Source: Yuukianura sp. NJ FZ-2021
Lineage: Eukaryota
Reading direction: 5' to 3'
Length of the DNA: 64,000 bases
NCBI GenBank assembly: GCA_046563655.1
Contig: CM102290.1
Span: 14,012,001 to 14,076,000, forward strand
Below the pieces are notes generated by a model. The model was not told where the DNA came from and ran no database searches. It saw only the letters and a list, made by a program, of their open reading frames with translations. Shown here piece after piece: positions 1,426 through 49,900 of this stretch (position 1 is the stretch's first letter; every line of letters begins with the position of its first letter). A program made the translations under genes and the position numbers.

Positions 1426-2475
1426 ATGGCTGACAAAAGGTCAGAGGTCACCGGAACTGGAAACAAGTATGAATGCGACCAATGTCACAAAAAGTTCAAA
1501 TCTTCCAAGACTCTGTCCAGCCACTTTGCTGTTCATTCTGACGTTCGACCGTTTGGTTGCTCCGAATGCCACAAACGATTCAAACGCAGTCAGGATTTGA
1601 AGAGACACATCGCTATGCACACAGGGGAAAGACCATTCCACTGCACAAGGTGCACAAAAACATTCATCCAGAACAGCGCCCTTACAATTCACATGCGAGG
1701 GCACACGTACGAGGGATTGGTTGAATGCAGCCACTGCAAAAACAAATTCAAATCAAATGGAGAACTCAAACAACACCTCATCATACACACAAAAGTAAGC
1801 AAATACACATGCACAATCTGCAACTATGCTGCAGCATCACAAGGGAATTTGGATAACCATGTTGCAACACACACAAATGAACGTCGTTTCCAATGTACGG
1901 AGTGCCACAAGAGATTCACGGAAGAGGGCCATCTGAAAAGACACCAAAGGATCCACGCTGGAGACAAGCGATTCCAGTGTAACTTCTGCACTTATGCAGC
2001 CATACACAAGCACACACTTGAAGTCCACATGCGACAACACACACGAGAGAAACCATACGCATGTGTGTTGTGCACCGCCACATTCAAGTCACACAGTGCT
2101 TTGAAGTACCACATTGGAATGCACACTGGAGAGAAACCATACCCATGCAAGGAATGTGGCAAGGAATTCAGAACTTCCACTATTTTGAAGTATCATGTGA
2201 AGATGCATGCGGGAGTGAAGGATTTCGAGTGCACAGTGTGCCACAACAAGTTCAGACAGCAATCAACACTCACTGCTCATGCGCGTGTCCATTCCGGAGA
2301 GAAGCCATTTGCATGTAAGTTCTGTGACAAACCATTTACACAGAGGACTCATTTGACCTGCCACCTTCGCATCCACTTGAATGAGAAGCCGTTTAGCTGT
2401 GGGAGTTGCCAGGCAGAGTTCAGATACAAACGCAATTTGCTGCGTCACCGGGAAGAATGCGTCGTCGATGAGTAG
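1426..2475 (+). CDS. Tandem C2H2 zinc-finger protein, paralog ZF-A (12 fingers, last one C2HC; no recognisable effector domain)
   Basis: 349-aa ORF of back-to-back CxxC-x12-HxxxH units with TGEKP-like linkers after a 14-aa leader (MADKRSEVTGTGNK). Probable 5'UTR intron at 1299-1398 (GTAAAA...TTTAG). An in-frame TGA lies 9 nt upstream of the ATG. Confidence 0.92.
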   Translation: MADKRSEVTGTGNKYECDQCHKKFKSSKTLSSHFAVHSDVRPFGCSECHKRFKRSQDLKRHIAMHTGERPFHCTRCTKTFIQNSALTIHMRGHTYEGLVECSHCKNKFKSNGELKQHLIIHTKVSKYTCTICNYAAASQGNLDNHVATHTNERRFQCTECHKRFTEEGHLKRHQRIHAGDKRFQCNFCTYAAIHKHTLEVHMRQHTREKPYACVLCTATFKSHSALKYHIGMHTGEKPYPCKECGKEFRTSTILKYHVKMHAGVKDFECTVCHNKFRQQSTLTAHARVHSGEKPFACKFCDKPFTQRTHLTCHLRIHLNEKPFSCGSCQAEFRYKRNLLRHREECVVDE

Positions 2476-5400
2476 TTCTCGCCACTCTACGCAAGATGCC
2501 GCACTTTTTTCTAATTTAATTTGTAGCGTTTCCAGTAATCTGATTTCCATCAATTGACAGGTTAAGTTTACACGTAGTGAAAAATTTTAAGTTTGGACAG
2601 TTAACTTTAATTCTACACCCTGTTCTGTACAAGAACAAAAACTACGAGTTAATTCTTGCCTCATTTTTGTTGTTTTTTTTTACTTTTCGTTTTTCTTTAG
2701 TTAGAAAAAATTTCAGTTGATCAGTAGTTTATAGTTTACGTTATTTTGAATAATTGCCATTTGTAATCCAAAAGTTTGTTTGTCTGCTGTATAAAGAAAT
2801 ACAAACAACAGAATCAACAAAGTTTACAGGTGTTTTGCATTTTTTAGTTTTTCTTCTTTTTCAAAATTTTCACGGTTTACAACACAACAACTTTTCATTT
2901 TCCAAGTTTTCAACAAATTGCAAATTACTCATTTTCTTCAACTTTGAATGCCTTCAGCATGTTTCAGCTGTGTTATTCCACTTTTAGTTAACATAAGTTG
3001 CAACTTAAATTGACTTTTTACAACATGTTTAACTAACTGTTCCTAATTGCACTGAAGTTAAAATTTACTAAATCACACATTCAGTAGTTATTAATGTCGG
3101 CATTTCATGTTTTGCGCAGCTTCAAAGTGAGTTCTGCGCATGCAAACCTTTGCTGTTCTACAGTTTGTAGCGTGGTGCATGTGTTATTTTCAAACGCCGA
3201 GTTAATCATGCATTTCACACTTCCGCTCCCAATTCTTTTTTAATTTGTTTGACAATGGCTTCTGATTAGTAGTTGTCACTCTCCAGCACATAATAGCTTC
3301 TCTAATGAAAATGATCAACTCTGGTTCACTTAACACAACTTTTGACATTTGACCTTTGACCTTTGGAGAAGCTAAACGGCAGCATCAGGAGTTTCTACAT
3401 GTGAATTTTCTTGTTTTTTGTTGAAACAAGACTGGAATGTTTTTGTAGAAGTTGTGCGAAAGGAGTTTTTGGAAATTAATTGACATGCAAATAATTGTGA
3501 AATGAAGACAACTACCTTACTGTGTACTGTCTTTGACTATTAATTGAGAGAATTTTATGAATCTCCTTGACCTTGCATGATTCCTAGCTTCACAAGAGTG
3601 AGCAGTGATTCAAGGTAAGCCACTTCAACAGAATTCTACTTCATCCGCATACACTGTAAACTCAGGTTTTTAGTATAACATAACATAACCTCGAATGTAT
3701 AAAATATAACTAAAGTGATGTACACCATGTGCACACACATTGTACATTGAACAAAAGTGTTCAGTTCATCTTCTGTCTGTTTTTGAGCCGAAAAAGAAAA
3801 ATCTGACACTGATTTGCACACCTCGTTCCGTCGGCATTGATCTTTCATCAATACTAAAGAAAACGTACTGTATGGTGTGTATATGTCTGTCCGTCTGTCT
3901 GTCTATTTCTTTCTAATTGTACTTTTTGTGCATGCGGCCGTTTCTCCAATTACAAAACAATTTTATAATTTTTTTAAATTTCTTTAATAAAATGGAGCGT
4001 TTAAGGTTTGGTATTGTTGACCACGTCTTTGCAGAATTTTTTTGGAATTGCTTGCATTAGATTTGAAATTTGATAATTATGTAAATAGTTCATTTTTATT
4101 TGGAGTTTTTGATTTTTTTTTTTTGCGTTTTTTTCGTGTAATTTTTTTTAGAATTCGAATTACAATGCGTGATTTGGTGGATGATTTGACGCTTGGCTAC
4201 TTGAGTATGATGGATTTTGAAAGTTAAAGCTTGGCTGATGATCAAGGGAAAGGGAAAGCCCATGTGATAATAAACTTTTTTTTAGACAAGACAAAGTTCA
4301 TGTTTTTTCTAAACAGGATTTCCTGTTTAGAAAATATCAAAAAACAAGGAAAAATTATGTAGGAGCAGACACTCTGCTACTTTTTGATAAATCCAACACT
4401 TAACTTTTTACTAACTTTACTACTGCCCTAATCCTCACAAGTTAGTGAAAACTGGAGAGACTAAACACATCAACTTGTTGTGATTTGGAAAAGTTTTGGT
4501 TTCTTTTTAGAAAAATTTCAACTGTTTCCTCTTCCTGCGAGTGCGTCTCAAGATTAGACCAACTGTGAAACACGTTTCGTTAAAAAAAAGTTTAGTTTCA
4601 AAATAGTTTCAAATTTTTGTCAGGTTTTGGTTTATTTCAAAACCCAAACGTTAAAAAATGTAAAACCTCAATAGTGCGGTAAAAAATTGAGATGAAGGAA
4701 ATAATTTTTAAAAAAGCGAAATGTTTAAAATTGAGGCTGTGAAATATTTACGCTTTCCTTGACAAATTTATCGTCTCTAAATCTGTATTCGTTGAATTTC
4801 AAAACAAAATTTCAAAAAATTGAACACCGAAAAGAAAGATTTTGAAAGAATTAAAAATAGCGCCAGTTCAGTTTGTCAGTTTGCCAGTAAATCGATTAGG
4901 CACCGAATTTATATTGAAAAGAAGCGTAACGTAAAAAACGAGATACAAAAACGTTACGGTTGCGACTACTTAACACATTCCGTACGTGTCGGTGTTACAG
5001 TTACAACGTTAGGTTGGTTATACCTAATCAAGAGTAGTTAAAGTACATAAAAATTAGAAAAATTGGAGTGTTAAAAGTTAGGTTGAAGATGTGTCAGTTA
5101 TGTATATGTCTACGGTTTAAAAAAAAAGAGTTTTGTGGTTTCAGTTCATGGCCAGTTTGTGTTTCCGCTCGAGCAGCGATTTCCTTTGTTCTCAAAATCA
5201 GCGCCATTTCTCACTACTTTTTCAAATTTTCCCTAACAACCTATTTTGTTCAAAAAAGTGAACTTTTAAGTTTCAACTTTAACTGTTTAACTTGTTTTTA
5301 TAGTTGCTTTAATCATATACACTCATGCTGTAAGAAAATTGGACCACACTATGGCGAAATTTGTTGCGCTGTTGAAGTTGTATGATTGAAAACTATATTT

Positions 5401-5994
5401 CTATGTATAATATAAATTAATATATTAAAAGTGATTAATATATTTTTCACTTTAGGGGTTTTAAGTATTGGATGATTAGGCCAATTGAGTATAATTTGTG
5501 AGTGACTACTGAAAAACCTTGTAGAGATCCAAAGTGTTGCTCGTGGTGTGAAAAATTAATCAAGTGAGCAGTGGGTGATAAACTGGAGTTTTAGCGGCTT
5601 TTCTCACTCATAATCTATAGCACTACCAATTGTCTTTCCCACGTTTTTCAAAAAAAAAAAGTTGCAAAAAATTTTTTTGATAAATTTTTGGCAATATAGG
5701 TTTCCAGCGTCATTCGAGTAATACTGGCAAAACACTTTGGATTTCACTGTTTTCAGTAAGTAAAAGTTAAAGTCAATGTACAAGATGTCGTGAAAATTTT
5801 AGACAAAAAATTTACAACAACGCTTTTGAGTGCTTTGTTTTCTGCAGTACAACTTTTGGAACGTAGTGTACAATTAGCTTAATCAGGAAAACGTATTCAC
5901 TTACCAATCAGAGCGACGACGACGAATACAATTTTTGAATTGAACTTCAAAATTTCCATTTTTACAGTCGTATTTTATCTTGAAACGAACCGCC

Positions 5995-8509: not shown

Positions 8510-10604
8510 TCAATAAGCTATTTTTTCCAGAATCCAATTGGAGTAGTTTGGAACGTTGACGTAAACTCCAGGAATTCCGTACTGTGCACATCCGATGCCC
8601 CAGGCGACGAGTCCCACCACTTGGAAGTCTCCTGCGTCACTTCTGCACACCAATGGAGACCCTCCGTCTCCCGTACATGCGTCTTTTCCATCTTCTCCGC
8701 CTGCGCACAAGAAACTCTTGCGATTCAATTGAAACGCACCTCCGAGACGAGTTTGACGCAGGCGTGCCTCGCATTCGTTCGAATCCAGAATTGGTACGTC
8801 AACTTCTCGGAGATAGTACGAGTGTTTCCCAACTTTGAAAGCATCTTTCCCAAATCCAGCTACCCAGCACCTATGCATCAGTAAAAGTAATTAGTAATGA
8901 ATTACAAGTAATTACGATGTAATTACTCTTGAATTTAAGGAGGCTTAAAGGTAAACACTCAGAAATAAGGATAGTAGTAAAGAATACAAGTGGTTATATG
9001 TTATAATTACTTTCGAAATGAAAGTAATTGCGGTGTAATTACTCTTAGAAATAAAGCAGTTTAAGCTTTAGTAGCATTAGGAATAAAAGTAATTAAAATA
9101 AAGTTACTTTGGCAATGAAAACTATGATGTACTTACTCTTGAAATACGAGTAATTACATTGTAATTACTCGTATTTCAGGAGTAAGTACATTGTAGTTAC
9201 TCGTATTTCAAGAGTAATTACAATGTAATTACTCTTGAAATAAAAGTAATTACTCGGAGAATTATTGAGCTTAGGTATAGAAAAATCAGGGGAGAACATA
9301 ATTCCGACGTAATAGAGCTTTCGAAATTAAAGTAATTACGACGAATTACTTGCGAAGTGAGGTAATTACCTTCGACCGACATAGTTACCATGAGGCTTTG
9401 GAAGACAAACGGTTTTGATATGAGGGTATGCATTTGTATCAATTGGTTGCGACAATTTGATGATGGCGACATCATTTTGCAGATTGTCGGCGTTAAAACT
9501 CGGATGAATATCGACACGGGCTACTTCAATTTCAATGTTTTTGTACGGTTCGGAGTCGTCCTGCGCATTCCACTCTCCGAAACGAACTTTCATTGGGTAA
9601 TTGGGCCTAGAACAAGAAAAAAAACTGCACGTGCGCAGAAATGATTTGAAGATGCTGCGCAGACTTACTTGAAGTCCTTAACTTTGTGGGCAGCAGTCAA
9701 AACGTGGGAACTGTCCAGCAGTGCGCCGGCGCCAAGGTAATTGTTGGAACTGGATAGAATTACGGCAAACCACGGGTACTCTCCGAAGTCAGCCTAAAAA
9801 TATAATGTAAAATAATTAATTTAAATATAATATAATTAAAAATATACTAAACTTTGTCCAACATGCCTCTCCATAGGTTTGTTTGTGTGAGGGAACGTTA
9901 ATGATGGTTGGCATTCCGCAACTGCCGAGTGGAATTCGTCCCTGTCCAGGTCCATCTCGTCCAGTATCTCCACAGCAGTAGATCTGGTCCTCTCCACAAA
10001 CAATGCCTGAGGGCTACAAATAATTAATACAGATTAATTACTTTAATTATTTTCAAATTAAAATTATTACATAAAACTATTTCCTACTCTGTTCACAATC
10101 CGAATGTCAATGTTTCCGGCTCCGTCGACGTCGGGATTGGTCGGAGGTGGCAAAAGTCCCGGATCGACGTACTCTCCGTTTCCTTTGCCGTAGTCACCTC
10201 CTCCTCCTCCTCCACCTCCTCCTCCGCCATTAGTCGGATATGACCCGGGACGATTCGGGCAGTACTGCTTGAGGACACATTCGCATTTTGCCCCCGGGGG
10301 AGGCGGTTGACCTTGACCATAAATCCCACCCCCATACAATCCACCAGTTCCTCCATACTTGTCATTGTACTGTCCATGTCCCTGTACAGCTTTCAGTTGT
10401 TCACTGGCTCCAGGAACTGGATCAACACCTACAAAAACACATTAAATTTAGTTTTAAGAATTAATTTATATAATTTATTTTAAAGTTTATGAACTTATTA
10501 CCCAATGTGGAAGCCAGTAAGCCCAGACGGTCGCCAGTATCGGTATTTCCTTGCGCAGCAGCAACCACGACCATCAACAATGTCAGTGCGTGCAAGGAAG
10601 CCAT
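8510..10604 (-). CDS. Secreted clip-domain serine protease homolog (CLIP-A / masquerade / PPAF2-like), catalytically inactive
   Basis: Exons 10604-10502, 10428-10088, 10013-9867, 9793-9669, 9606-9370 and 8870-8510 join in phase. Signal peptide MASLHALTLLMVVVAAAQG, Gly/Pro-rich region, clip cysteines (CECV..YC, IVC..IYCC), the DIRIVNR and FGEYPW motifs, His in TAAH, Asp in NDVA, and catalytic Ser replaced by Gly (DACTGDGGSP). Confidence 0.9.
8880..9368. repeat. Intronic GTAATTAC-based tandem/inverted repeat array (about 31-bp unit)
   Basis: Repeated taattactcttgaaat-like units fill the last intron of the protease homolog, including a 65-bp near-perfect palindrome at 9127-9191. Confidence 0.8.
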
Positions 10605-10814
10605 GACTATGAAAACAGGCGCTTATACTTGAAAACACTGAATAATACCTGAAAACAATAAAACAAAGTAGAATAACACTGAATTCAGTTAAAAAAACAC
10701 CCAAGTGTTAGATTTGAAAACAGTTGAAAACTTTGCATATTAGTACAGGATATCTAGCAATACGTTGTAATGAAGACAGTTAAAATAGAAGTCAAAACTA
10801 CTTTTGAAAACACA

Positions 10815-13251: not shown

Positions 13252-16200
13252 TCACTTGTCTTCTTTGAGCTGCTGCTGACTTCCCGACTGTTTCCTTACA
13301 CTTCCGTCGCTGTCGTCCATGTACACTTTGACGAGATGTACTGGATTGTACTGTCCAGCGGACATCATTTGATTCACTTGTTGTTGCTGAATCTTCCAGC
13401 GCTTTCTCATTCGGGCTTCCTTCGGACTGTAGTAGTAGTCGGGGTACTTTTTCTTATGATCGTCATTCGCTTGACGAGAAGCAGCAAAGTATTCTTCCTG
13501 AAAACAAAAAACCAAAAATTTCAAAAATCTCATTCTAAAATTCCATATTTTCAAAATTTCGAATCCATTCTCAGCTCACCTTCTGTTGACTGGCCAAGTT
13601 CTTCCACATGATGCCTAAGCGAACACTGATCTCCTTGTTACTTTCGTTAGAGAACTGCACGGCCAACTTCCGTCTCCACTCGTTTGCAAAGATCATGAAG
13701 GCGTTTGGTGGTCTCGGGATCTTCTCTTTCGGTTCCACAGTTGCACCTCCTGCTGCTGCATATCCAGACATCTTCATCAGTGAGTACTTACTCACAATTT
13801 CTACATTTTGCCCAACCCCATCAACACAAATTACAATCAACAATTACCTAAATTCATCAACAAAAAAACACCCACTCAAATCCAAAAGTTAGTTCAACAC
13901 ACAAACAGCTCAACAAAATCAAAACAGTTTCAAAATTTTCTCCACAATTTCTCTATACCATCTAAAAAAAACTTTTTAAAAAAAAGTTAGTTCCACGCTC
14001 TCTATTAATCTCTACTTGAAAAATTCGAGAAATTGAATAAACCTGTTGTCGCATTTGCAGAAATTTTGAAAAGCAAAAACTATTCACCCAAAAACGAAAA
14101 AACTAAAACAAAAAAGCCCAAACCACCAAGAAAAAAGAGACAGAAGACTTTGTGACAAGGTTGTTTAGGTTAGGTTAGTTAGGAAAAACAGTTTTTAGAC
14201 ACACGTTAGGGGAAGGGGGGAAGAACCAAACCTTGGAAGAGAATGAAAGAGCTACTGACCTTTGACATCCTGATGCCCGTCGCTAGTTTCCTATAACAAA
14301 GTGACAGAAGCAAAAGAAGAAAGAAGAAATTAGTGCCCGAGTGTGGTTTCAAGAGTCAAAAAATCCTTGACACAGCAAAACTACAAATCCCACTAACCAC
14401 TTTTTGAAAAAAAAACTAGCCACTACAATGAAAATTTTCAAAATCTAAAGAAACTACAAGAGTAAGAAAAAAAAGCAAAAGTGTGTGGAAGCGTTTTGAA
14501 TTTAGAAGCATTTTAAGACTTAAAAAAAACTAAACAAGGTCAGAGGTCAAGTTCGTTGGATCACCATTGGCCGTATGACGTTGCGTAAACGTTTTAAAAC
14601 ATGCGAAAACGTTAATGTATGTTTGTGAAGTGACGTTTGTGTGACACTGTGCTCCGCATTACGACCCTGGTGATCCAAGACGAGAAGATGGACTACAACG
14701 ATTAACTTTCGGTTGCAATTAATCGATTAATTGACTAATTAACTAAAACTTACAAAAGTGGAATCCTTCCCAACTCCATCCGAGTCATCTTCATCAATAT
14801 CCCGAATGTAAGGTGGATCAATTTTGATGGTCAACGGTAACTCGTCACTGTTCTCGTCATCAACTGACGTCGACACAGTTTCCACCGCTGGACTCCGTTT
14901 CCTCTTCGGCTTCGTTTCTCTGCACCGATTTTGATTTACCTTCATTTTTACAACAAAAAAAATGTTCAAAATTTGTAATTCCCAAAATTCAAAATTTGTA
15001 TTTCCCAAAACTTACATCTTTGTTCACAGAAGCTAGTTTTGCACGTTTTCGTCGAAGGTAGCTTGGAGTCTCTTCAATATCTGATGAGTTTCCACCCAAC
15101 TATAGTTCAAATTAGAGTTAAACTCAATTAGTCGATTACCCTGAGCTAACTAATGGATTTTAATTTACTTACTTGACTGTTGGCAGAAGTTAACGAAGAT
15201 GGCGTTCTTCTGGGAGAAGTGTTTAGTGGTAACACTGAGTTTGGTGAGGACACGTGATGTGGACTATTGGTCAAACTGCTATGGTTACTGTTCGTGTGAC
15301 TCCTCTCTGCGCATGCTCCGTCTCCCATTTTGCTATTAGACAGATCTGAGTTGGTGGATCCAAGTCCTTTGGTATCTGTACAGTTATCCAGGGACTTTTC
15401 TGGAGAGGAGGCAGTGGAGCACGAAGAATGAGAATTTTGGAGTTGTTGACCCGATGCAGGTCGTGTGGCACGAACATTAGACAGGCCCTTGACCTGCAGC
15501 CCTTCCGCCGTCGCCAGTAAACTCTCCAAATCACTTTCCGTGATCTGCAAATCAAAAGTACAAAAATAATTAGCATTAACTATAACATTCATTTTACTTA
15601 ACTTTAAGTAACACTGTAGACATAGTTGTACATTGTGTTCCAAAAGTAATTAACTTGTTGGAACACACTTCTTTTTTTCTTACATACTATGTAAGTCCTA
15701 ATCATTCCACAAAATATTCCAAAGTTAAGTCGGAACAGATCAGTGATTAATCTGGAGGAGATTAAGAGTTGCAGCAACAAAAATATTGAATGCTGCTAAT
15801 ACTTTTCGTCTGACGACGTAGACCTCAACAACGCAGACTTTCAAAAAGTCCAAACACTAAAGCCATCAACATCAACCTGTTCCTCCGTCCTGTCTCATGC
15901 GCAGTAGATTCTCAACTTGAGTATCGTCAACGTTTACATCTTGAGTTTAAGTTCTAATAGTGGGAGGACAGACAGACAGACAGACAAGGTCGAGGTATCA
16001 AGTAGCTTTCATTTAATAAGTTGAAGTGGACAGTACCTTCACTTCTCCTTTGTACATAAATTCCACTATTGCTCGAATATCTTCATATTTTACTCCGTTC
16101 ATGATGATCACAGGATGGGCAGCTTCGTGCTGGTCAAAAATATCCTACAACAGACAAACAAATATTTTGAAATATTGAAAAAAAGTCATTTGCAATTTTT

Positions 16201-36429: not shown

Positions 36430-37395
36430 TTATACGTCGACGCAGCATTCTTCCCGGTGACGCAACAAATTGCGTTTGTATCTGAACTCTGCCTCGCAAC
36501 TCCCACAACTAAACGGCTTCTCATTCAAGTGGATGCGAAGGTGGGAGGTCAAGTCACCACTTTGTGCAAATGCTTTGTCACAGAACTTACATGCAAATGG
36601 CTTCTCTCCAGAATGGACACGCGCATGTGTAGTTAGTGTTGATTTCTGTCTGAATTTCTTGTGGCACACTGTGCACTCGAACTCCTTCACTCCTGCATGC
36701 ATCTTCACATGATTCTTCAATCCATAGGATGTGCTGAATTCCTTGCCACATTCCTTGCATGGGTGTGGTTTCTCCCCAGTGTGGATCCCCATGTGGTACT
36801 TCAACACACTTTGTTGCTTGAATGTGGCTGTGCACAACACACATGCGTATGGTTTCTCATTCGTGTGTTGTCGCATGTGGACTTCAAGTGTGTGCTTGTG
36901 TATGGCTGCATATGTGCAGAAGTTGCACTGGAATCGCTTGTCGCCTGTGTGGATCCTCAGATGTCTCTTCAGATGGCCCTCTTCCGTGAATCTCTTGTGG
37001 CACTCCGTGCATTGATAACGACGTTCATTTGTGTGTGTGGCAACATGGTCGTCCAACCTCCTCTTTGACTGTGCAGCATAGTTGCAGATTGCGCACGTGA
37101 ATTTGCTTACTTTTGTGTGTATGATGAGGTGTTGGTTGAGGTCTGAGTTTGATTTGAATTTGTTTTTGCAGTGACTGCATTCAACCAATCCCTCGTACGT
37201 GTGTCCTCGCATGTGTCGTGTAAGCAGACCTTTCTGGTTGAATGTTTTTGGACATTTAGAACAACTGAATGGTCGAACATCCAAGTGGAGCACGGAATGT
37301 AGGCGTAGGTTTGCTGCACTTTTGAAGTGCTTGTGACATTGGTTACATTCGTATTTGCTTCCAGTTCCAGTGACCTCTGACCTCTTGCCAGCCAT
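36430..37395 (-). CDS. C2H2 zinc-finger paralog ZF-C (11 fingers)
   Basis: 321-aa ORF collinear with ZF-A but lacking finger 2 (28 aa). Same leader and upstream splice acceptor. Confidence 0.92.
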   Translation of the reverse strand: MAGKRSEVTGTGSKYECNQCHKHFKSAANLRLHSVLHLDVRPFSCSKCPKTFNQKGLLTRHMRGHTYEGLVECSHCKNKFKSNSDLNQHLIIHTKVSKFTCAICNYAAQSKRRLDDHVATHTNERRYQCTECHKRFTEEGHLKRHLRIHTGDKRFQCNFCTYAAIHKHTLEVHMRQHTNEKPYACVLCTATFKQQSVLKYHMGIHTGEKPHPCKECGKEFSTSYGLKNHVKMHAGVKEFECTVCHKKFRQKSTLTTHARVHSGEKPFACKFCDKAFAQSGDLTSHLRIHLNEKPFSCGSCEAEFRYKRNLLRHREECCVDV

Positions 37396-38725
37396 TTTGT
37401 CTCAACCAGGTTCTTTTAGTACCTAAACGAAAAAAAAAACAAGCATTATGACTCTTTCCATATTCTTCAATGTAAAGTATACTTCCAGCACAAAATAACA
37501 TGTTTCTTCCTTACTCCAACAATGAAGTGTCCAAAACTTGATGTCCAGTCAATCGGAACTGAGTGTACACTTGACCTCAAGTGGTGTGACCTTGACCTCT
37601 GACCTTGTTTTCCAAGAGTAACACTGGAAGCGTCTTTTCTGCTCCGCTGCTTCTCTGCCTCTGACTGGACGAAGGCTCATCTTCCAGGAAAACTGAACTG
37701 GCATCAGTCACAAAATATCAGGATTTTACATTTTGCAAAAACTCAGAATTTTGATAAAAACGAGTAACCTCGCGAATCACAAGATTTGCCAATTGATTTC
37801 ACATCTCCAGAGCATTTCATATCTTCCAATCCATTCACATTTCACATAACTTTTTGGAACGGAAAATTGAAAATTGTAAATTAAAATTCTTGTTCTCTTG
37901 ATTCACCCAGTCTTATAAACTCATGCATTGCTTAGTAACTAAACATGAAAAAATTACTTGTACGAGACGAAAAAACAGCAATGTAAAATTTTGAGATATG
38001 AGTCAAATCTTTTTAAATAATTTGAAATTACAAAATAACTCATAATTCCTTTTGATGCTAAAAGAGTTAGTCAATTTTTATTTATCTTTTTGAACTGGAC
38101 GTTGAGTCCAGAGGTCATTGAGCGCGAAACAGAAATTACTTGAGCAAACGAGCTCTACACTTTACGTCACTTTCTAAAATGTCAAAATTTGGAAGCTAGA
38201 TTTGTTTCAATTTTTTTAAATACTCAACACTACAAATTGCGACACAAAAACAGAAATTTGAGGCAATAGAAATTGAGAATTTGTAAATTATTCAAAGTGT
38301 TGGAAATAATGTGAAACCACGAAGCAACACATAAATTGTTTGTACTGATGATATTGCACTTTTATTTAAATTTTGAACTGGATTTGGCGTGTAGAGGTCA
38401 ATGACCTCAAAACAGAAACTAATTGAGAATAGCTAAGTGATGCATGTCAGAGGACTAAAACTACTAAATTCAATTATTCCTAAAACAATATTAACTAAAC
38501 AACAAAAACTACTGAAAATGAAGCAGAAAAACTGAGGGGAAAACCAATTTTGCTATAGTTCAGGAGTGCAGCGGTTGGAATCACATAACTGATAAGTTGT
38601 TACTAACAATTCAACCAACCAACAATTAATATTTGACAAAACTAACAAAGTTATTTAAGTTATGAAACTTTAGCTCCTGGATTAACTAATCAAATGGGGT
38701 GATTTGTTTGAACACAAGTTTTAAC

Positions 38726-39439
38726 CTATGCGTCGACGCAACATTCTGGCTGGTGACGCAACAAATTGCGTTTGTATCTGAACTCTGCCTGGCAACTGCC
38801 ACAACTAAACGGCTTCTCATTCACATGGATTCGATGGTGGTAGGTCAAAGTATGCCTATGTGCAAATGTTTTGTCACAGAACTTACATTCAAATAGTTTC
38901 TCATGTGTATGCTTTCGCATGTGGGTGTCAAGATGTTGTTTCTTTATGGCTGCATAAGTGCAGATATTGCACTGGTATCTCTTGTCTCCTGCGTGGATTC
39001 TGAGATGCATCTTCAGATCGCCTTCCTGTGTGAATCTCTTGTGGCACTCCGTACATTGGAAACGACGTTCCTTTGTGTGTGTCGCAACATGGTTGTCCAA
39101 CTTCATTTGGGATTGGGCAGCATAGTTGCAGGTTGTGCATTTGAATTTGCTTACTTTTGTGTGCATGATGAGATGTTTCTTGAGTTGTGAGTTTGATTTG
39201 AATTTGTTTAGGCAGTAACTGCATTCCAACAATCCCTCGTACGTGTGACCTTTCATGTGAATTGTGAGTTGACCTTTCTGGTTGAATGTTTTTGTGCATC
39301 TGGAGCAACTAAATGGCCGAACTTCCAAATGAACTACGGAATGCTGGCGTAGAGTTTGTGCAGTTTTGAAGTGCTTGTGACATTGATCGCATTCGTATTT
39401 GTTTCCAGTTCCAGTGACCTCTGACCTCTTGTCAGCCAT
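38726..39439 (-). CDS. C2H2 zinc-finger paralog ZF-D (8 fingers)
   Basis: 237-aa ORF lacking fingers 2, 8, 9 and 10 of ZF-A (349-237 = 4 x 28 aa). Leader and terminal C2HC finger are retained. Confidence 0.9.
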   Translation of the reverse strand: MADKRSEVTGTGNKYECDQCHKHFKTAQTLRQHSVVHLEVRPFSCSRCTKTFNQKGQLTIHMKGHTYEGLLECSYCLNKFKSNSQLKKHLIMHTKVSKFKCTTCNYAAQSQMKLDNHVATHTKERRFQCTECHKRFTQEGDLKMHLRIHAGDKRYQCNICTYAAIKKQHLDTHMRKHTHEKLFECKFCDKTFAHRHTLTYHHRIHVNEKPFSCGSCQAEFRYKRNLLRHQPECCVDA

Positions 39440-40921
39440 GTTGTCTCAACTAGGTTCTTTTAGTACCTACACAAAAAAAAAGACAACGTTTTGAGTCTCT
39501 TTTTTTCGCATTTTTCGTAGTACACTTCCAGTTTACAAAGTGGTTCGTGTTTTGCTTACCGATTTGGTGACTCCAAGGATGAAGTGTCCAAAGCTCAGCT
39601 GATGTGCAGTCAATCGGAGCTAAATGTACACTTGACCTCTTGGGTGACCTTGACGTCTGACCTTGTCTTCCGAGAGTAACACTACGTAAGCGTCCTTCCC
39701 ACTCTGATGCTTCTCTGTCTCTGGCTGGACGAAGACTCCTCTTCCTCCAAAACTGCCATGGTCTCATGCATTCCTCACAAGAATGTCATACAAAAAGAGC
39801 ATGGTATAACAATTTTCATAAAAACGTATGCCGCGCGAACATAAGTTGCAAAAAGGAGCTTAAACTGAACGGACGGACGACTGACAACTCATATCTCACA
39901 TGAATTTACATCAAACTTTACTTTTCGCATAAAAAAACTGAAAATGTAAGAAGCAAGGATTTTTTTTTTGGATTTGAATTTACCAGTAATTCAGTTTGCA
40001 GTTTGCACAAGTTTAAAGTCAATTATGAAATTAATTCACATTTGAATTAGTTTTCTGCAGTACCAAAATACTAGGAGCATTTTGCAAGTGCTGAAATGCA
40101 ACTGTTTTATTGGATGACCTTTGAACTACAAAGGTCAACTTTTTATTGGAAGTAGGTTGAGGACGGAAGTGATTTGCTTAAACTCATCAATTTGTTTGCG
40201 GAGGTCAAAGGTCAGCACAGATCCTTCGCTCCATGAAAATCAAGTCACAACAAATATTTCCAAAAAATACAAAAGACTTTGTACCAAAAATTATTAAATT
40301 ACTTTCAAAATTTAGATTAAGCAACAATTAACTTAATTTTCAAAAACTTTATGATTCAATGTACCACCATCGTTTAAGTATGATTGAAACCTAATTTTTT
40401 TTTTGGCACGCAGACACTTAAAGACAACAGTGTTACAAAAGTTAATTAAACTAATAAATTACTATCAATTACATATAATTATATATAAATCATTATATAA
40501 TTAATTAATAATTAAACAACAGTACAGTAAGTAGTAAGGAACAGTCTGGAGTTTGACACGTTTTTAGACAAAGTTGATGGCAATAATTTACACGTTTGAT
40601 GCAAAAGTTTCTACATTGACCAAAATCTAAACATAATTAAGCTTAGCCTAACTAGCCTAATTTGTTAACCTAACGCAAAACGAATCAACTAACCTAATTT
40701 TAACTAACCTAACTATATTTTATCCTAACCTTACTGAACTATAACAATGGAATTGAGCTGGTAACAAAAAGCTTGTTTCGGAGTAAATCAACTTTTTGAA
40801 CATTTTGATTGCGAATTAAACATTGGTCACAATAATTTACACATCAAACTAATTCTTGCTTCTAATTACTTGAATTACTTCTTACTTGAATTACTTGTAA
40901 TTACATTTAAATTAACATATT

Positions 40922-43900
40922 TTAAACGTATTCTTCACTTGGACGACTATTGGCATTGGTATATCTCGTTCCACCGCCACGATTTGCGGAACTTCCCAAG
41001 TTATTTGAACCGTTTCCGCCGGAATGAGCCGGAATCGGTGGATTTCCGGTAGAAGCCGAAGAAGATTCGGCTCCTTCCGGAATATTATTAAAAACGTTAA
41101 CATTAGCATTGTAGTTAGGGTGATTCCAACCGTTCAAGTAGTTCCAACTGTCTGTAGAGTAGGGTTCGCCACCTCCCCGGTTCAACGAACCCTTCCGGAA
41201 TCCTCCGACATAAGCCAAATCGTCATCCGAAGCCACCAGAGTCGACAAAGATCCGCGAAACGACTCACGTTCGGCTCCCGTACCGCCGTTACCGTTTTGA
41301 GGCTGCTCTTTCTGGGCAGTTGAGTAAGGGTGACCCCTCTTCCGCTCAAATTCAAATTCGGAACAACTGAACGAATCGTTCCCGGACTTTTCGTCGTCAC
41401 TTGTTAAGGTTTGACCTCTGCGGGGGTCAAAGGTCATGGTTTGTCGAACTTTTCCGGTGATAAAGTCTCCTGGACTGCTCTTCTCATCTGTTTCGGTACT
41501 CGAACCGACATCTAAAGTACTGATGAGACTGGAATTGTTTTGTCTAGAAATGTTGAGTCGATCGATCTCCTCTGCCGTGAGTCCACCCAGTGAAGTATTG
41601 GAATTGTTTCGTTCTTCGGACCGTGTGCACTTGCGACGTTTTTTCTTCTGCTGCTGCGCAGATCTATTGAGCATACAGCTCCTGCCGGAACTTTGACTCC
41701 TTTCACTCTGACTAATCACTTCCTTTTTTTGAAGTAGTGCATTCTGGTATGGTTTGCCACTGATGTCCTTAAGTGTGAGGATCCTTGGACCGGTTGGATG
41801 AGACATTTCGCTGCTTGGGCTAAGTCTAGCCAATGGAGTGGATTTTAGCCCAGTGGACAGAGCGTTTGGTCTCATCAACTCAGGACTCCGGTTCGAGACC
41901 CCGAAGGGGTGATGAGAGTGGGCTCCAAAAGGAGGAGATTTTCCTCTACTCTTGTTATCTCTATACCCTTTGTAGTGATAAACAATGTCTATATCTGATG
42001 GGGCAATGGAACTGGCATTTTCAAGGTCGTAGTGCTCCGGTAAATCGGAAATGTCGGGTTCCATGGATACCGAGTTGAAACCGCCGCGGAGTACCGGACT
42101 TGGGATACCGTGAGCGGAGAGGGCATTTCGCTCAATGATGTCTGGCGTTTGGTAGCCCTGGTCAGTACTTGCTCTTTTCTTGAGGTTGCGCAGTACACTT
42201 TCTTGGACGGTATCTGGATGACCTTTGACCTTTTGCCGAACCATTTCGTTCGGTTGAGAGTTGGAACTGCCGGAGCGTTTTCCGGTACCGATACCGGGAC
42301 TGGCTAGAGAAGGTGAACTGCCTTTTTCGGATTTCCGGAGTCGGAACACGACGAAACTGACGAGAATTGCTACAAGCAAAACGGTAAAGAAGATGATGAC
42401 GAGTGTAACACCGATACTGAGCGGATCGGGGCTGGATGAAGACCGAAGAGCACTGCTGCAACCGAACTCGATACCGTGAGATCGGTTCATGCCGAGCAGT
42501 CCGCCGGAACTGTTCAACGGTATTAAGTTGTCATTGATGATGAAGTTGGACAGACATCCGTCAAAACCTGGGGAAAAAAGAGAGTAACTTTGTACTTCGA
42601 AATTTTTTAACACAAAGGCAAAAACTTTTTTTTTAAAAAGAGAACTTTTTGAAACTTACTTGGGAGTTTTTGGAGAAACGGAAAGTTGTGCGTCGATTCT
42701 ACTCCACCTAGCGACATTCGTGTGAGGTACGGATCCAAGAAATTGTGGGCCGAAGCACTGTTGAGCTCGTCAGCCCACTGTTGTCCATCCACGTAGACGT
42801 GAAGTACTTGATCACGGCGCTCAATTCTCACGGTGTGCCAACTTCCATCAGTCAAGGTCACCGAGGTCAACTTTTCCATTGTCACGTTTATGGCATAAGT
42901 CCTGTCCAGTTTTGTACTAAAGGTCAACAGACCATCTTGTAACTGAAACAAGTTTCAAAAAATTCACAAATCGGAAAAATTCAACATTTTTCAAAGTTTC
43001 GTAAAACTTTTTCTACACCAGGTTGTACAATAACTCCAAGTTTTAAAATTTCTATTAAAGTAGGAAACCTGCCCTTTCCATGGTAATTTTTTGCATGTAA
43101 TCTAAATGGGATTGGTACTAAAAGTTGTTTGGAGCAAGATTTTTTGAAAATCCTGAGTTATTGGACAACCTGTCGTAGGAAATACAATTCGGTTGTCAAG
43201 GAACCTTGTTTCTTACGTGTAGAACAGTATAGTCGGTGTTAGTTGCAGCAAAGAAAAGTAGTCCATGAGGTTGTATTGTGCGGAAGTCAAGTGACACAAA
43301 GTCACTGACAGCCAGTCGCTTGTCGTCGTCATATTTTTGACGAAATGCTGCCAGTAGTTGACCTCGTTTAAATTTTTGTGAAATTTCAAATTCGAAAAAC
43401 CCGCCTTCACGGACAGTGTAAGCAGCCAGGGCAAGGTCACAGTTGGGTGACACAAAGTTGGTATTGACACATCTACAAGCGTGGGAATCATAAAGGTCAA
43501 TGCACTCTCCATCTAATCCGCAGCCATGTCGTTCCGGATTGGTGCAAATCGCTGCGTCGCGGTGACACTGATCGCTGATTCCACGTGATCTGATTGGTCC
43601 AGAGACGTTGAGGCCCCGCCCATTCACTTCCAAGCTCTGAATGCAACCAATGAAATCGTCCGTTTGGATTTGGCCAGGACGTTCCAGAAGTGGCGTCACG
43701 GTGTCCAGTCCACCAATGTATACTGGATTTCCATTGAAGGTCAATGACCTATCAAAAAAGTTCAAATTTTGAAAAAATTTTCAAATTTTTTTTTTATGTT
43801 TGAAATTTTGAACGTACCCGGTATGTCCAACATCATTGCCATAACATGAGGTGTCGCCAGTTGGGCACTCTGTGCAATATTCTCCGTCGTCTTGACAATC

Positions 43901-46900
43901 CGAAACACTCAACGAAATTACTTTACCGTTTCGTATCGCCAGGATCCGATACCACTTTCCGTCGGTAACAACTTTTCTTAGTGTGATGCTGCCAACAGCA
44001 GTTCTTGACCCGCCGAAAGCAAATCTCACGTGACCTTTGACCAGTTCCAGCACAATAAAGTCCGATCGGCCACCAACTTCCGCTCCAAAGTTATACAGAA
44101 GCAGAGCATTGTTCTGATTGGTTGAAAATACAATTGAGATGTCATTGGTGTTGGGGTCAAGCGGGTCAAAGGTCATGAACGACCCCTCAGAAAATCCAAT
44201 GCTGCTGGTTTCACAGTACTTTCCAAAAAACATGTTTCGACATCGACATCGTACCGAGTTGGATACCGTACCGTCATTTCCGACCAAACACTCCCCGCCA
44301 TTCCGGCACGGATTTGGAACGCACGGATTGGCTCCTGAGACGGAACAGTTTTTACCAAGAAAATTTGGACGGCATAGACAAAAGTATGAAACGGTTTCAC
44401 GGTCGTCGTAGTTCGGATGACACGTTCCGCCGTTCCGGCACGGTCTGGCGTCGCAGGGATTGACTTGCTCAAATTCACAGCGTTTCCCAGTTCGATTCCC
44501 GGGACAGGCACATTCAAAATCGTGCCCAATTTTAGTACAAAGTTCGTTTCCGGAACAAGGGTTCGGGTTACACGGATCTCGTCGGTACTCGCACGTTGGT
44601 CCTTCAAAATCTCCGGTACATGTACACAACACTCCGATTTCTAGTGCCGGTACCGACAGAATTGTCGTTTCCGTTTCGGTAATTGACCGGTTCGGAAGTA
44701 TTTTGATGGCAGAGGAACAAGAATTGGCGCCATTTTGGCACGGACTGTCTGAACATGCAGAGTAGTCGACCAATACCGGATGTTGTACCGTTTCTTCCAG
44801 TGTCGAGCGTTGACCAATCAGCGTCGAGATTACATTTTTTCGGAATTCTTTCGTTGGACCTAAAATGAGATCGGATCCATTCGGATTTTGAACAATTCCG
44901 AAAATTTGTACTTCTTCGGTAAATACTTTGTTGAAAAAAGTTTGTAGTTTTTGAAAATGAAGCAGAAGCTGAGCAGGATTGATTCCGTCGATACGTAGAA
45001 CAACTGCGTAGTCTAAACTTGCGTTGTCGTAGGACCCGTAATGAATGTTTGTCATTGACGTTACTTCTTTGTGTCTTCCGTCATGCGCGATGGTCGTCAG
45101 GGTCTGCATTTTAGTCACTGGAATTTTGTCCATGAAGAGTTTGCAGTCACCGCTGACGGAAAAATCGGTCTGCGCAGGCGCAGATCCGTCACGTCGACAT
45201 TTGTAGTTTCCAGTGCTGTCAGGATCAAGAGGATACAAAGTTGCGACTTCTTCTTTTGGCAGTTGACCTTTGACATTTAAGATCAAGAGGTCACTGACCC
45301 TGCGTTGAGAGGGGTTATCGTTAACATCTTCAACAGAAATGGTCACTTCTTCTACGGTTTTGAGCGGAGGAACCCCGTTGTCTGTAATTTCAACTTCAAT
45401 TTTGAATTCTGGAGTCTTTTCGCGGTCAAACGAGGTGAGAGAGGTCACGACTCCTGTTTTCGGGTCAACTTTGACTTTTGGAGGTGAGGAGGATTGGATG
45501 AGTCGGAATGTGAATGGACCAGTGTTTGGCGGGAGGTCGAGGTCAGTGACCTCCAAGGTCATGACCTTGGTTCCGATTGGCTCGTTCTCCAAAATACTCC
45601 CTCTAGTGGATCCTTCTCTCAGTGTTGGCGGGTTGTCATTATCATCTAGGAAATTAAAAAAAATCATTGTGGAAAGTTAGCACAATATCACATACTAATG
45701 ACAAGTCATTTCCAAGGTTGGTTAGTGAGGTACAAATTTTTAGCGGAATCAATTTTTGAAACGAAAAATTGTTTTTTGTGATATTTTTGTGACTAATGAA
45801 AGAACTACATGACAATTTTCTTAATTCATTCTTAATTAATTGCATGATAACCCTAAAACCTTGTGCAAATCGAATACTGCCAATTCAAAACCAAAAAAAA
45901 AATTCTTTTTCTTAAATTATTAGCTTTTTTTTTACGAAAAGTATGTTTGATGTAAATTCATGTGAGATAAGAGTCTCAGGCTAAAATCTTGTTTGCAAAT
46001 TTTGTGATTTGCGAGGTATAAGTTTCTAGCAAAATTCTTAGCGTTTGGAAAATGTAAAATATTGTTGTTCTGTGATATTTTTGAGAAGCCATGATAGTTT
46101 TCTTGGAAGGAAGAAGAGCCTTCGTGCAGTCAGAGGCAGAGAAGCATCAGAGCGGGTAAGACTCTTCGATTGTTGCTCTCGTAAGACAAGGTCAGAGGTC
46201 AAGGTCACATTTAGCTTCGATTGAGTGCACCTCAGCTCAGCTTTGGACATTCCAGCATTGGAGTCAGCACATTGGTAAGGAAAACACGAAACACTTTGCG
46301 CTGGAAGTGTAATCTCTTCAAAAAATTCGGAAAACAGACAACAAAACTTGTACTTGTTTTATGATGTTTTAGTCTTGAAAGAATCTGGCTGAGACAATGG
46401 AAGGTCAAAGGTCAGAGGTCACTGGAACTGGAAACAAGTACGAATGTGACCAATGCCACAAAAAGTTCAAAACTTCCAAGACTCTGTCCATCCACTTTGC
46501 TGTTCATTCTGACGTTCGACCGTTTGGTTGCTCCGAATGCACCAAACGATTCAAATGCAATCACCATTTGAAGAGACACATCGCTTTGCACACAGGGGAA
46601 AGACCATTCCAATGCACAAGATGCACAAAAACATTCATCCAGAAAAGTGATCTTACACGGCACATGAAAGGTCACACTTACGAGGGATTGGTTGAATGCA
46701 GCCACTGCAAAGACAAATTCAAATCAAATGCAGAACTCAAGAGTCACCTCATCATACACACAAAAGTAAGCAAATTCACATGCACAATCTGCAACTATGC
46801 TGCACAGTCACAGAGGAGGTTGGACGACCATGTTGCGACACACACCAATGAACGTCGTTTCCAATGCACGGAGTGCCACAAGAGATTCACAACAGAGAGC

Positions 46901-49900
46901 AATCTGAAGATGCATCTGAGAATCCATGCAGGAGACAAGCGATTCCAGTGCAACTTCTGCACTTATGCAGCCATAGAGAAGAATACACTGGACATCCACA
47001 CGCGACAACACACACGTGAGAGGCCATTTGTATGTGTGTTGTGCACAGCCACATTCAAGTCACACAGTGCTTTGAAGTACCACGTTAGGACCCACACTGG
47101 TGATAAACCACACCGATGCAAGGAATGTGGCAAGGAATTCAGCAGTTCCACTATTTTGAAGAATCATGTGAAGATGCATGCGGGAGTAAAGGAGTTCGAG
47201 TGCACAGTGTGCCACAAGAAGTTCACACATGAATGGAACCTCACTGTTCATGCGCGTGTCCATTCTGGAGAGAAGCCATTTGCATGTAAGTTCTGTGACA
47301 AAACATTTGCACAGAGGGGTAATTTGACCTCCCACCTTCGCATCCACTTGAATGAGAAGCTGTTTCGTTGTGGCAGTTGCGAGGCAGAGTTCAGATACAA
47401 ACGCAATTTTCTGCGTCATCGGGAAAAATGCTGCGTTGACGCATAAGTTACAATTTCTGTCCTATCAAATCACTTCATTCTGTTAGTTACTCCTATAACG
47501 CAGTAGTAATAAAGTTACATAAGCTGGCTTAATTTGTAACTTTAGCTTACCTAAGTTCTGTTAAGTCTCAATTCTGAAATATTAATTGTTCATTATGTGA
47601 TACCTTTCCCTTGCGGTGTATTCATGAAGAGTAGCACATAACTAACTCTATATTTCTGTTTCTGTTTCAATTTGATTAGTTAAATTGTTGTTTAGTTAAT
47701 GTTGTTGTAGGAATAATTGAATTTAGTAGTTTCAGTCCACTCACACTCACATCCATCATCAAGTATTCTCGTGCAATTTGTGCTAGAGGTCATTGACCTC
47801 TAGATTCCAAATCCACTTCAAAATGTAAATAAAAGTTCCGTATTGCATCATAACTAAATTACTTGTTTTGTGGTTTCACATTATTTCAAACACTTTTGAA
47901 TAAATTCCAAATTTTACATTTCTGCTTGCTCTCTGTTTTTATCTCGCAGTAATGTTTCAGATTTTGCTAAAATTACGAATTTTTGTGAAAGTGTAAAAAT
48001 TCTGTCTTTCTTTGATATTTTCGTGAGGCATGTATGACAGACATCATAACAGTTTCTTAGGGAATTTTTTTTTCTCTTCCTTGCACTATTTATGACGTTT
48101 CAAGCCATTTCCAATTTTTTTCCCGACTTTTTTTTTGGTGGGAAGGGACTCCCTTTGCACGCAGGGGGGAGGGGTACCTTGGTTAAAAATTGAAACGAGG
48201 ACGGCGCCAAAAGCATCTTGTATAAAAAGAATTTTTTAAGTATAAAAATTAATTTCAAAAAGTTAATTACCTTTGAGTGTAATGGCCACCGTCGTACGAC
48301 CGGTTTGCGGAGGGTCACCGAGGTCAACTGCCCCAACGACAAGATTGTAGCTTGACCTCATTTCACGGTCCAATCGCTTCACAGTCTCAATTTTCCCCAA
48401 ATCAGCGTCAATTCTAAAATTTCCATCAGCGTTTCCCTCCAAAATGGCATAGGAGAAGCGACTGTTGAGTTGACGCACGTCACTGTCTCTTGCCACAACC
48501 GTGATGACGTCAGCAAACGGTTTGATTCCTTCAGGAATTTCTACTGCGTAGAAATCTTTTTCAAACGTTGGCGGATCGTTTCCGTCTTGTACCGTTATGA
48601 TGATTTGAGCTTCGTCAATATCGTGGCCTCTGATTGGTCCAGAATTTTTTGCCACTACGGTGAGTATAACGCGAGCTTGAGATTCACGGTCCAGCCGCCT
48701 GTTGACAGTCACAGTACCGGTTTGACTGTTGATACCGAATCCACGGTCTAAACTGGATCCAAGAAACAAGTAGTTGACGACTCCGTCTGGACCGCTGTCC
48801 TCATCTGTAGCTTCTACTGTACCGACGACCGTACCAAGTCCAGCTGATTCCGAAACGACAAACTGAAAAACCGGTTGAACGAAACGCGGAACGAACTCGT
48901 TGACGCCTACAATTTTTACGGTAACATGCGTAGAACCGAACAAATTTGAATCCGGGTTAGCTGCGACAACTTCCAAGCTGTATTCACTTAGCTGTTCATA
49001 GTCAAAGGAACGTTTTGACGTTACATGACCCGTTGTAGCATTGACCTCAAATGACCCCTGACCTGTCCCACCTACAACGGCATAAGTAATCACTCCAAAC
49101 TTGGCAGAGTCCTTATCACTTGCTGTTAGTTTTAAAATTGACGTTCCCGCCTTTTCATTTTCTGGAACGTCAACAACATACGTCAGCTGATCAAAAACTG
49201 GAGGATTGTCGTTGTAATCCGTCAACAACACTGTCACTTCCACTTCACTTTGACGTCTATGGAACCCCTTGTCAGTTGCCGTGACAATCAGCTGATGTTC
49301 TCTCTGTGTCTCGTAGTCCAGCTGATTCTTAATTGCCAGTGCTCCACTTTTCGAATCAATTTCAAACAAGTTGGCGCCATTTCCAGCATTGAAGGCATAC
49401 ACCACTTCACCGTTGGGCCCACTGTCACTATCAACGGCCTTCAACGTCACGATAACGGTCCCTGTCACTTCATTTTCTGGAACAATCACGCGGTAACTCG
49501 AAGAGGTGAATACTGGCGAATGTTCGTTGGGCCCCGTCACGGTTACTTTTAGCCCCACTTTTGTCTCTAGTGACGGAATGCCCTTATCTGCTGCCCTGAC
49601 GATGACGTCATACTTGCGTGACCTTTGACCTGTCACGTTTTGTTTCAAGGTCAACCAGCCTGAGTCTTTGTCAATCGTCAACAGATCGGTTCCACTCACC
49701 AAGGAATACTCTATGACGGCATTGAATCCAACGTCTTCGTCATCTGTCGCAGTCATTTGAAATAGACGGTCGCCTACAACAGCTGATTCGAGTACCGAAA
49801 GTTCGTAGAGTGGCAGGGGAAACTTGGGCGGAGAATTATTTGCACCGACGATGTTAATTGTCACTGCAGCTTCAGATGATAACGGCGGATGGCCTCGATC

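Follow-up and report, generated by a model that had tools for sequence, protein, structure and literature searches.

Among the zinc-finger systems closest to the one described here, positive selection at helix positions -1, +3 and +6 has been reported for recent poly-finger duplicates in several animal lineages (Emerson and Thomas 2009, PMC2604467), along with a relation between the numbers of finger genes and of transposons that does not depend on accessory domains (Wells et al. 2023, PMC10547256). ZAD-ZNF genes are dynamic in Drosophila (Kasinathan et al. 2020, PMC7655104), and families encoding fingers alone, termed ZF271-like or APEZ, have been described in the milkweed bug and the pea aphid (Panfilio et al. 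2019, PMC6444547); these four papers are cited here and below for the parts of their text on which we draw. Here we analyze a cluster of five paralogous C2H2 poly-zinc-finger open reading frames (ORFs), designated Z1 to Z5, within a 64,000-nucleotide (nt) stretch of DNA from Yuukianura sp. NJ FZ-2021 (GenBank assembly GCA_046563655.1, contig CM102290.1, positions 14,012,001 to 14,076,000 of the forward strand), hereafter referred to as the window.

In fingers 1-11 of these proteins, the four canonical base-reading helix positions (-1, +2, +3 and +6; ‘contact’ positions) change as fast as neutral DNA or faster while the scaffold is strongly constrained, so that each paralog has different reading residues. 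We assign a probability of roughly 0.62 to the reading that the cluster comprises five paralogous finger-only genes, four intact and one decaying, whose specificities would be diverging under diversifying selection.

Layout of the finger cluster

The ORF list (standard genetic code) places the five copies as follows, in coordinates of the window (aa, amino acids):

1426-2475, plus strand: Z1 coding sequence, 349 aa, comprising a 14-aa leader and 12 fingers of 28 aa each, finger 12 being C2HC
34338-35276, minus strand: damaged Z2 coding region, of which 34467-35276 is the ORF part (269 aa)
36430-37395, minus strand: Z3 coding sequence, 321 aa, 11 fingers, lacking finger 2 (in-register gap of 28 aa)
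38726-39439, minus strand: Z4 coding sequence, 237 aa, 8 fingers, lacking finger 2 and fingers 8-10 (in-register gaps of 28 and 84 aa)
46397-47446, plus strand: Z5 coding sequence, 349 aa, 12 fingers

The Z2-Z5 proteins are 74-82% identical to Z1, and a tblastn comparison with the window, in which the copy count rests on matches to the Z1 query only, returned six matches, all at the five Z loci and none elsewhere. Four of the five copies are intact, with 12 (Z1 and Z5), 11 (Z3) and 8 (Z4) fingers. Z2 is truncated or decaying: a 1-bp insertion (TTTT vs. TTT) follows finger 10 and the ORF ends at 34467, finger 11 is legible in the next frame, and a 10-bp deletion then takes out the finger 12 cysteines. 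An earlier note on this DNA, prepared from the sequence alone, had described five ORFs with similar scaffolds and divergent helices. The positions it gave are exact, and the difference between copies peaks at +2, +3 and +6. The helix strings it listed for fingers 3 and 6 are all exact, as are those for finger 11 in four copies, whereas the Z2 string (‘QSDHLNH’) had been read through the frameshift caused by the insertion and lies in the other frame.

Z2, Z3 and Z4 are arranged head-to-tail with ATG-to-ATG spacings of 2119 and 2044 nt, and the entire spacer is therefore part of the duplicated unit. On the same strand, ∼1.2 kb upstream of where these three copies start, lies the last ORF exon of a FAT-like cadherin gene. 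Two ORF exons of this gene (43781-45667 and 48263-51316, minus strand) flank Z5, which is a single inverted, antisense unit, and Z1 lies 32 kb off. Around the coding region, the copies are similar from about -430/-600 to about +500. Pairwise synonymous divergence (dS) between copies is 0.26-0.52 and the mean distance between their predicted introns is ∼0.54 (Jukes-Cantor, JC), indicating that the copies are not young duplicates. The expansion proposed in the earlier note is therefore putative, with five copies in the window, one of them decaying and none young. The nearest partner of a copy differs finger by finger (finger 1: 94% identity for Z1-Z5 vs. 61% for Z1-Z3; finger 7: 93% for Z1-Z3 vs. 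86% for Z1-Z5), and segments have therefore been swapped among copies. Tandem Repeats Finder reported no minisatellite-like array inside the five coding regions. We take the cluster to have arisen through duplication of a ∼2.1-kb unit, yielding three head-to-tail copies, one inverted copy and one 32 kb distant; whole fingers have been lost or gained in register and segments traded between copies.

A transposable element carrying the ORFs and spreading the 2.1-kb unit might explain why the Z5 unit stands alone and inverted in an intron of another gene. The Z5 unit, however, has no terminal inverted or long terminal repeats (only pairs of 14-18 nt, as expected by chance), and the three head-to-tail copies recur every 2044-2119 nt, as tandem duplication would produce. 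Furthermore, transposase, integrase and reverse-transcriptase families matched none of 94 flank fragments (gene-strand translations of the sequence on either side of the copies, cut at stops, 30 aa or longer), and the 3′ flank of Z1 is not common to the other copies. We consider such an element a very improbable source of the cluster.

Variability and selection at base-reading positions

For the analysis of variability, helix positions were counted from the first histidine, Z2 was masked beyond residue 267, and alignment gaps entered as missing data. The mean pairwise amino acid difference among copies is 0.66-0.76 at +2, +3 and +6 and 0.45 at -1, followed by 0.37 at +1, no more than 0.31 at all other positions, and 0.00 at the four zinc ligands. 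Counting by the Nei-Gojobori method (NG86) yields a pooled pN/pS of 1.14 at the contact positions, vs. 0.26 elsewhere.

Likelihood estimates of the nonsynonymous-to-synonymous rate ratio (omega) were obtained with our own GY94 model, for which the one-ratio (M0) likelihood matches that of IQ-TREE (-3082.005). With contact and scaffold codons partitioned and branch lengths shared, omega is 2.09 at contact and 0.25 at scaffold positions; both equality of the two (twice the log-likelihood difference, 2dlnL, 196.6) and a contact omega of 1 (2dlnL 22.7) are rejected. Contact omega is 1.85-2.26 under the F3x4, F1x4, F61 and equal codon-frequency models (2dlnL 15.4-29.4), and 1.64 when Z2 is left out (2dlnL 8.1, p = 0.004). 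IQ-TREE estimates 2.14 for the 48 contact codons alone and 0.285 for the scaffold, for which omega spans 0.21-0.29 over the likelihood analyses. When each position of the 28-residue register is given its own omega, with branch lengths fixed from the GY94 partition fit, the estimate exceeds 1 at exactly four of the 28 positions: -1 (1.46), +2 (2.01), +3 (2.74) and +6 (2.28). The remaining 24 do not exceed 0.63, with the zinc ligands at 0.00; zinc ligands, hydrophobic core and linkers are under purifying selection.

Two further analyses dispense with the partition or with the tree. Without a prior partition, M2a is favored over M1a (2dlnL 14.2, p = 8e-4), assigning 8.4% of sites to an omega of 3.35; the three of 349 sites with posterior probability above 0.9 are all contact positions (finger 1 +6, finger 3 +3 and finger 9 +3). 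Pairwise likelihood, which uses no tree, places contact omega at 1.20-4.14, above 1 in 10 of 10 pairs and with p < 0.05 in six. The codon-model check of contact against scaffold positions suggested in the earlier note therefore came out with contact omega above scaffold (2dlnL 196.6), the site-model comparison having been run as M1a vs. M2a.

Several points weigh against attributing these ratios to diversifying selection. Counting places the pooled contact ratio at just 1.14, and pairwise contact dN/dS ranges from 0.71 to 2.89, exceeding 1 in six of ten pairs, equaling 1.00 in one and falling below 1 in three (0.71-0.93). Contact dN (0.41-0.79) is similar to the mean intron distance (JC 0.54), a level that a neutral rate at these positions might also produce. 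Four of the six significant pairs in the tree-free analysis include the damaged Z2, and two of the six Z2-free pairs reach p < 0.05. Recombination or gene conversion between copies violates the assumption of a single tree; the data set comprises five sequences only, its contact sites are close to saturation, and omega can be inflated by multi-nucleotide changes. With regard to the genes themselves, transcription, splicing and DNA binding are predictions, and neither AATAAA nor ATTAAA is present within 900 nt of the Z1 stop codon.

One alternative is relaxed constraint, in which base-reading positions drift neutrally after duplication (the target being irrelevant or the copies redundant) while the fold is kept. 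The pooled NG86 value of 1.14, the three pairs below 1, the closeness of contact dN to intron distance and the decay of Z2 are all in line with such drift; mosaic structure can inflate likelihood tests, and differing levels of constraint could yield part of the positional pattern. However, every likelihood estimate exceeds 1 (1.64-2.26 on the tree, 1.20-4.14 in 10 of 10 pairs), and drift would not pick out -1, +2, +3 and +6 while the neighboring positions +1, +4 and +5 stay at 0.17-0.52. Moreover, the helix of finger 12 is unchanged, showing that helix residues are not free to vary everywhere. Relaxed constraint thus appears possible but doubtful, and diversifying selection at the contact positions is the more likely, although not proven, cause, the reservations being that only five sequences are compared, that they recombine, that their contact sites are near saturation, and that counting and likelihood disagree. 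The rapid diversification proposed in the earlier note accordingly holds as a difference between contact and scaffold omega (∼2.1 vs. 0.25), but an omega above 1 is backed by the likelihood tests and not by the Nei-Gojobori count (1.14), and the mosaic nature of the copies weakens tests on a single tree.

Protein architecture

In each protein, the finger units of 28 residues start immediately after a 14-residue leader (MADKRSEVTGTG.K). All five proteins match the Pfam families zf-C2H2 (PF00096; 99.9-157.6 bits, cut-off 25.2) and zf-H2C2_2 (PF13465; 129-233 bits, cut-off 40). The spacing C-x2-C-x12-H-x3-H/C fits 12 of 12 units in Z1, the last being C-x2-C-x12-H-x3-C; the zinc ligand columns show no difference (0.00) among copies, and the linkers are only partly canonical.

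The five proteins match zinc-finger-type Pfam families only above cut-off, with no KRAB, SCAN, ZAD, BTB or SET domain among them, and none of the 94 flank fragments matches KRAB (PF01352), SCAN, ZAD, BTB, SET or a transposon enzyme. The sole flank-fragment match, to DUF6124 at 17 bits (cut-off 27), is noise. As a control, the ZAD of the protein P0391 was detected with the same library (E 1e-10). The domain absences listed in the earlier note are thereby confirmed. Its suggestion that the family works without a known effector module stands insofar as none is recognizable; this is not unusual, since clustered, rapidly turning-over finger-only families are described from Hemiptera in the sections of Panfilio et al. 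used here (PMC6444547).

Variability is not spread evenly along the array. Contact positions differ by 0.42-0.80 in fingers 1-11 but by 0.00 in finger 12 (among the four copies that have it), whose other positions differ by 0.20, and the 14-residue leader is almost constant among copies. Hypervariable helices, as described in the earlier note, are therefore a property of fingers 1-11, the helix of the C2HC finger being invariant. The constant leader and finger 12 could be the component that stays fixed, and binds a partner or an anchor, in a reader that varies elsewhere. If diversifying selection is indeed the cause, the Z proteins, predicted to be sequence-specific DNA binders, would have had their specificities pushed apart by it. 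They would probably act as repressors or as chromatin or architectural factors, either through occupancy alone or with the leader and terminal finger, both constant, serving as a minimal site for partner binding.

Predicted gene structure and flanks

Gene models were derived from sequence only, by aligning ∼650 nt upstream of the five ATG codons. From 5′ to 3′, an AT-rich, poorly conserved region (mean pairwise identity 63%) is followed by a conserved block (180-218 nt, 82%), a poorly conserved stretch (92-100 nt, 62%), a short conserved leader (24-27 nt, 84%) and the ATG; the opening 45 coding bases average 87%. The block ends in a G immediately preceding GTAAG or GTAAA and the stretch ends in a pyrimidine run plus YAG, such that GTAAR donors and polypyrimidine-YAG acceptors are present in all five copies. 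Such a pattern of conservation, together with the splice-site motifs, is typical of a short intron behind a non-coding first exon. Each copy therefore looks like a two-exon gene, predicted to consist of a non-coding exon 1, a GT-AG intron of 92-100 nt and one coding exon. The corresponding features (UTR, untranslated region) are:

1081-1298, plus strand: Z1 predicted non-coding exon 1, ending at a GTAAA donor; its 5′ limit is defined by the start of the conserved block rather than by a transcription start
1299-1398, plus strand: Z1 predicted 5′ UTR intron, 100 nt, GT to polypyrimidine-TAG
35395-35591, minus strand: Z2 predicted exon 1 (conserved block)
35302-35394, minus strand: Z2 predicted intron, 93 nt
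37515-37695, minus strand: Z3 predicted exon 1 (conserved block)
37423-37514, minus strand: Z3 predicted intron, 92 nt
39560-39755, minus strand: Z4 predicted exon 1 (conserved block)
39467-39559, minus strand: Z4 predicted intron, 93 nt
46095-46274, plus strand: Z5 predicted exon 1 (conserved block)
46275-46372, plus strand: Z5 predicted intron, 98 nt
47447-47948, plus strand: Z5 3′ flank, common to Z2 (33727-34337), Z3 (35865-36429) and Z4 (38238-38725)

Every copy has an in-frame stop between the acceptor and the ATG, 3-21 nt before the latter, so that an upstream coding exon cannot extend the frame via the predicted acceptor. The earlier note had excluded an N-terminal extension on the basis of such stops, and the same observation eliminates a model in which one upstream coding exon is joined by splicing to every finger exon, as at loci with alternative 3′ finger exons. 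Exon 1 is itself not a conserved coding exon, since indels in the block disrupt any common frame. One frame of exon 1 (1081-1298 in Z1, and its equivalents in the other four copies) gives ‘..GRFQC...K(T)RSEVKVT..’, which looks like a finger linker with the leader ‘KRSEVTGT’ after it; exon 1 may derive from duplication and decay of the coding exon's 5′ end.

The 3′ flank shared by Z2-Z5 is ∼500 nt long, contains a conserved AATAAA 360-514 nt past the stop codon and is probably a 3′ UTR, as judged from its sequence. The flank of Z1 (2476-3375) is unrelated to it. The similar flanks attributed by the earlier note to all five copies are thus present in all five on the 5′ side, while on the 3′ side they are common to Z2-Z5 only.

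These features also bear on whether the copies might be unexpressed relics of a silent or dying cluster, still open by chance, as the broken Z2 and the lack of a canonical poly(A) signal within 900 nt of the Z1 stop might suggest. Arguing against this, four ORFs of 237-349 codons have stayed open despite a dS of 0.26-0.52, scaffold omega is 0.25 with all zinc ligands invariant, and exon 1, the splice sites and the AATAAA-containing 3′ flank are conserved above the level of intron and upstream DNA. A dying cluster is accordingly quite unlikely.

AGGTCA words in the window

The hexamer AGGTCA/TGACCT is the most over-represented of all hexamers in the window, with 172 occurrences vs. 29.7 ± 5.1 expected (order-1 Markov model, 100 simulations, maximum 44; order-2 expectation, 30.2 ± 5.6), an enrichment of about six-fold. 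Examples are found at 3350, 14537, 19901, 22118, 26445, 40202, 42219, 49619, 50847 and 63511. The excess extends beyond the finger genes, to cadherin coding exons and non-coding DNA, with the following densities:

Finger-gene units: 5.8 per kb (33 sense, 4 antisense)
Cadherin ORF exons: 4.3 per kb
Rest of the window: 1.86 per kb
Expected: 0.46 per kb

Direct repeats with one spacer base (DR1; AGGTCAnAGGTCA) occur at 19 sites, compared with none in 100 shuffles, and the IR1 palindrome AGGTCAnTGACCT occurs at seven sites in the window. Such arrangements of AGGTCA are classic nuclear receptor binding sites. Each finger-gene unit carries AGGTCA words in exon 1 and in the coding leader, with a DR1 in both places, and the 3′ flanks of Z3 (36007), Z4 (38395) and Z5 (47787) contain the perfect palindrome GAGGTCAnTGACCTC, 41-44 nt before the AATAAA; the corresponding palindrome of Z2 (33865 region) has one mismatch. 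We take the palindrome of Z3-Z5 to be of the ecdysone-receptor-type IR1 form. A special DNA-level conservation of the leader word AGGTCAgAGGTCA was considered and rejected: with columns of fewer than four sequences dropped, 135 of 194 codon columns with invariant amino acids (70%) are nucleotide-identical, and invariant runs reach up to 28 nt elsewhere.

These words might act as nuclear-receptor sites or instead stem from a sequence bias throughout the genome; a literature search for AGGTCA over-representation in arthropods found nothing relevant among the papers listed. One might speculate that a family private to a springtail-like lineage, in which eleven fingers diverge while a constant leader and C2HC finger act as minimal effector or anchor, is hormone-timed, or that its constant finger reads AGGTCA. 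We regard this as unlikely; if true, it would tie a diversifying DNA-reading repertoire to a genome-wide motif.

Neighboring sequence

The finger cluster is located at the 3′ end, and within one intron, of a gene for a FAT-like protocadherin, the large ORF exons of which (40922-60768, minus strand) encode cadherin repeats and laminin-G domains, together with a cytoplasmic-tail ORF without Pfam match. Upstream of the 5′ ORF exon of this cadherin, at 61819-62234, Tandem Repeats Finder identified a 416-nt array of an 11-nt unit (GTCACAACATA; 37.9 copies, 85% matches). An ORF at 15149-15649 that we had suspected of encoding part of a BTB domain matched no Pfam family. Other features of the window are:

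8510-9677, minus strand: trypsin-like serine protease fragment
13571-13843, minus strand: HMG-box exon
21597-21884, plus strand: tetraspanin exon
30237-32600, plus strand: NADPH-cytochrome P450 reductase exons

One P450 reductase exon is 75-76% identical to the proteins of the springtails Orchesella cincta and Allacma fusca, 68-74% identical to insect proteins, and 80-82% identical to transcript-derived proteins, which points to an arthropod host, probably a springtail-like hexapod.

Relatives and comparison with known systems

A word-indexed search of 5.8 billion protein clusters with whole Z1 returned only generic poly-finger proteins (30-45% identity). In an exhaustive phmmer search of 1.84 billion representatives, the best 150 matches were very long poly-finger proteins (29-45% identity), beneath which relatives of less than ∼65% identity could hide. 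Searching with the family-specific Z1 fingers 4-7 gave six candidates, the best being the ZAD-bearing P0391 (40% identity over this region; 34% over 267 aa when compared with Z1). Among the matches listed, no protein more than 45% identical to Z1 was found in the three database searches, in line with a lineage-restricted family. The ESM Atlas contained only generic finger-only clusters (OZF, XlCGF, ZFP2 and similar), and the closest solved structures by sequence are the finger arrays of ZNF568 (5v3m, E 3.5e-100), CTCF, Aart and PRDM9.

The pattern seen in the Z cluster is already known from other animals, and clustered, fast-turnover families of finger-only genes are known in insects; current understanding is unchanged. 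What the cluster offers is a clean, small example of evolution at or above the neutral rate that is confined to the four canonical base-reading positions, the scaffold being tightly conserved. It is also one more independent case of arrays made of fingers alone that can diversify in the absence of modules such as KRAB or ZAD. Families of this kind are apparently undescribed in the arthropod lineage of the Z cluster, none having turned up for springtails among the papers listed in literature searches.

PRDM9 resembles the Z proteins in that its finger contact residues change fast, but the Z proteins lack a PR/SET domain and a minisatellite-like array of near-identical fingers. With the vertebrate KRAB zinc-finger proteins (KRAB-ZFPs), and with the general pattern of adaptive evolution in poly-finger genes, they share clustered paralogs, a conserved scaffold and high variability, possibly with positive selection, at base-contacting helix positions, as far as these are covered in the cited parts of two of the papers (PMC2604467, PMC10547256), and the nearest solved structure is the array of the KRAB-ZFP ZNF568 (5v3m). 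The Z proteins have no KRAB domain, however, and TRIM28-type recruitment is therefore not expected. Insect ZAD-ZNF genes (PF07776) rank first in abundance, according to the text consulted, among the dynamic and lineage-specific classes of zinc-finger genes in arthropods, and the best match to Z1 fingers 4-7 is a ZAD-bearing protein (P0391); in contrast, ZAD is found in none of the five Z proteins and none of the 94 flank fragments.

The ZF271-like/APEZ families, as portrayed in the parts of Panfilio et al. cited here (PMC6444547), share the most features with the Z cluster: hexapod hosts, tandem C2H2 fingers alone, multi-gene tandem clusters, disrupted pseudogene copies, variable finger number and lineage-specific expansion, all without a KRAB domain or a KAP-1 partner. 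They differ in copy number (>115 in Oncopeltus vs. five here) and in having documented expression, while the Z proteins have partly canonical linkers and a constant C2HC last finger, and their database matches, at most 45% identical to Z1, give no sign of orthology. Because those matches are generic poly-zinc-finger proteins, an origin of the Z family independent of the hemipteran subfamily appears more likely.

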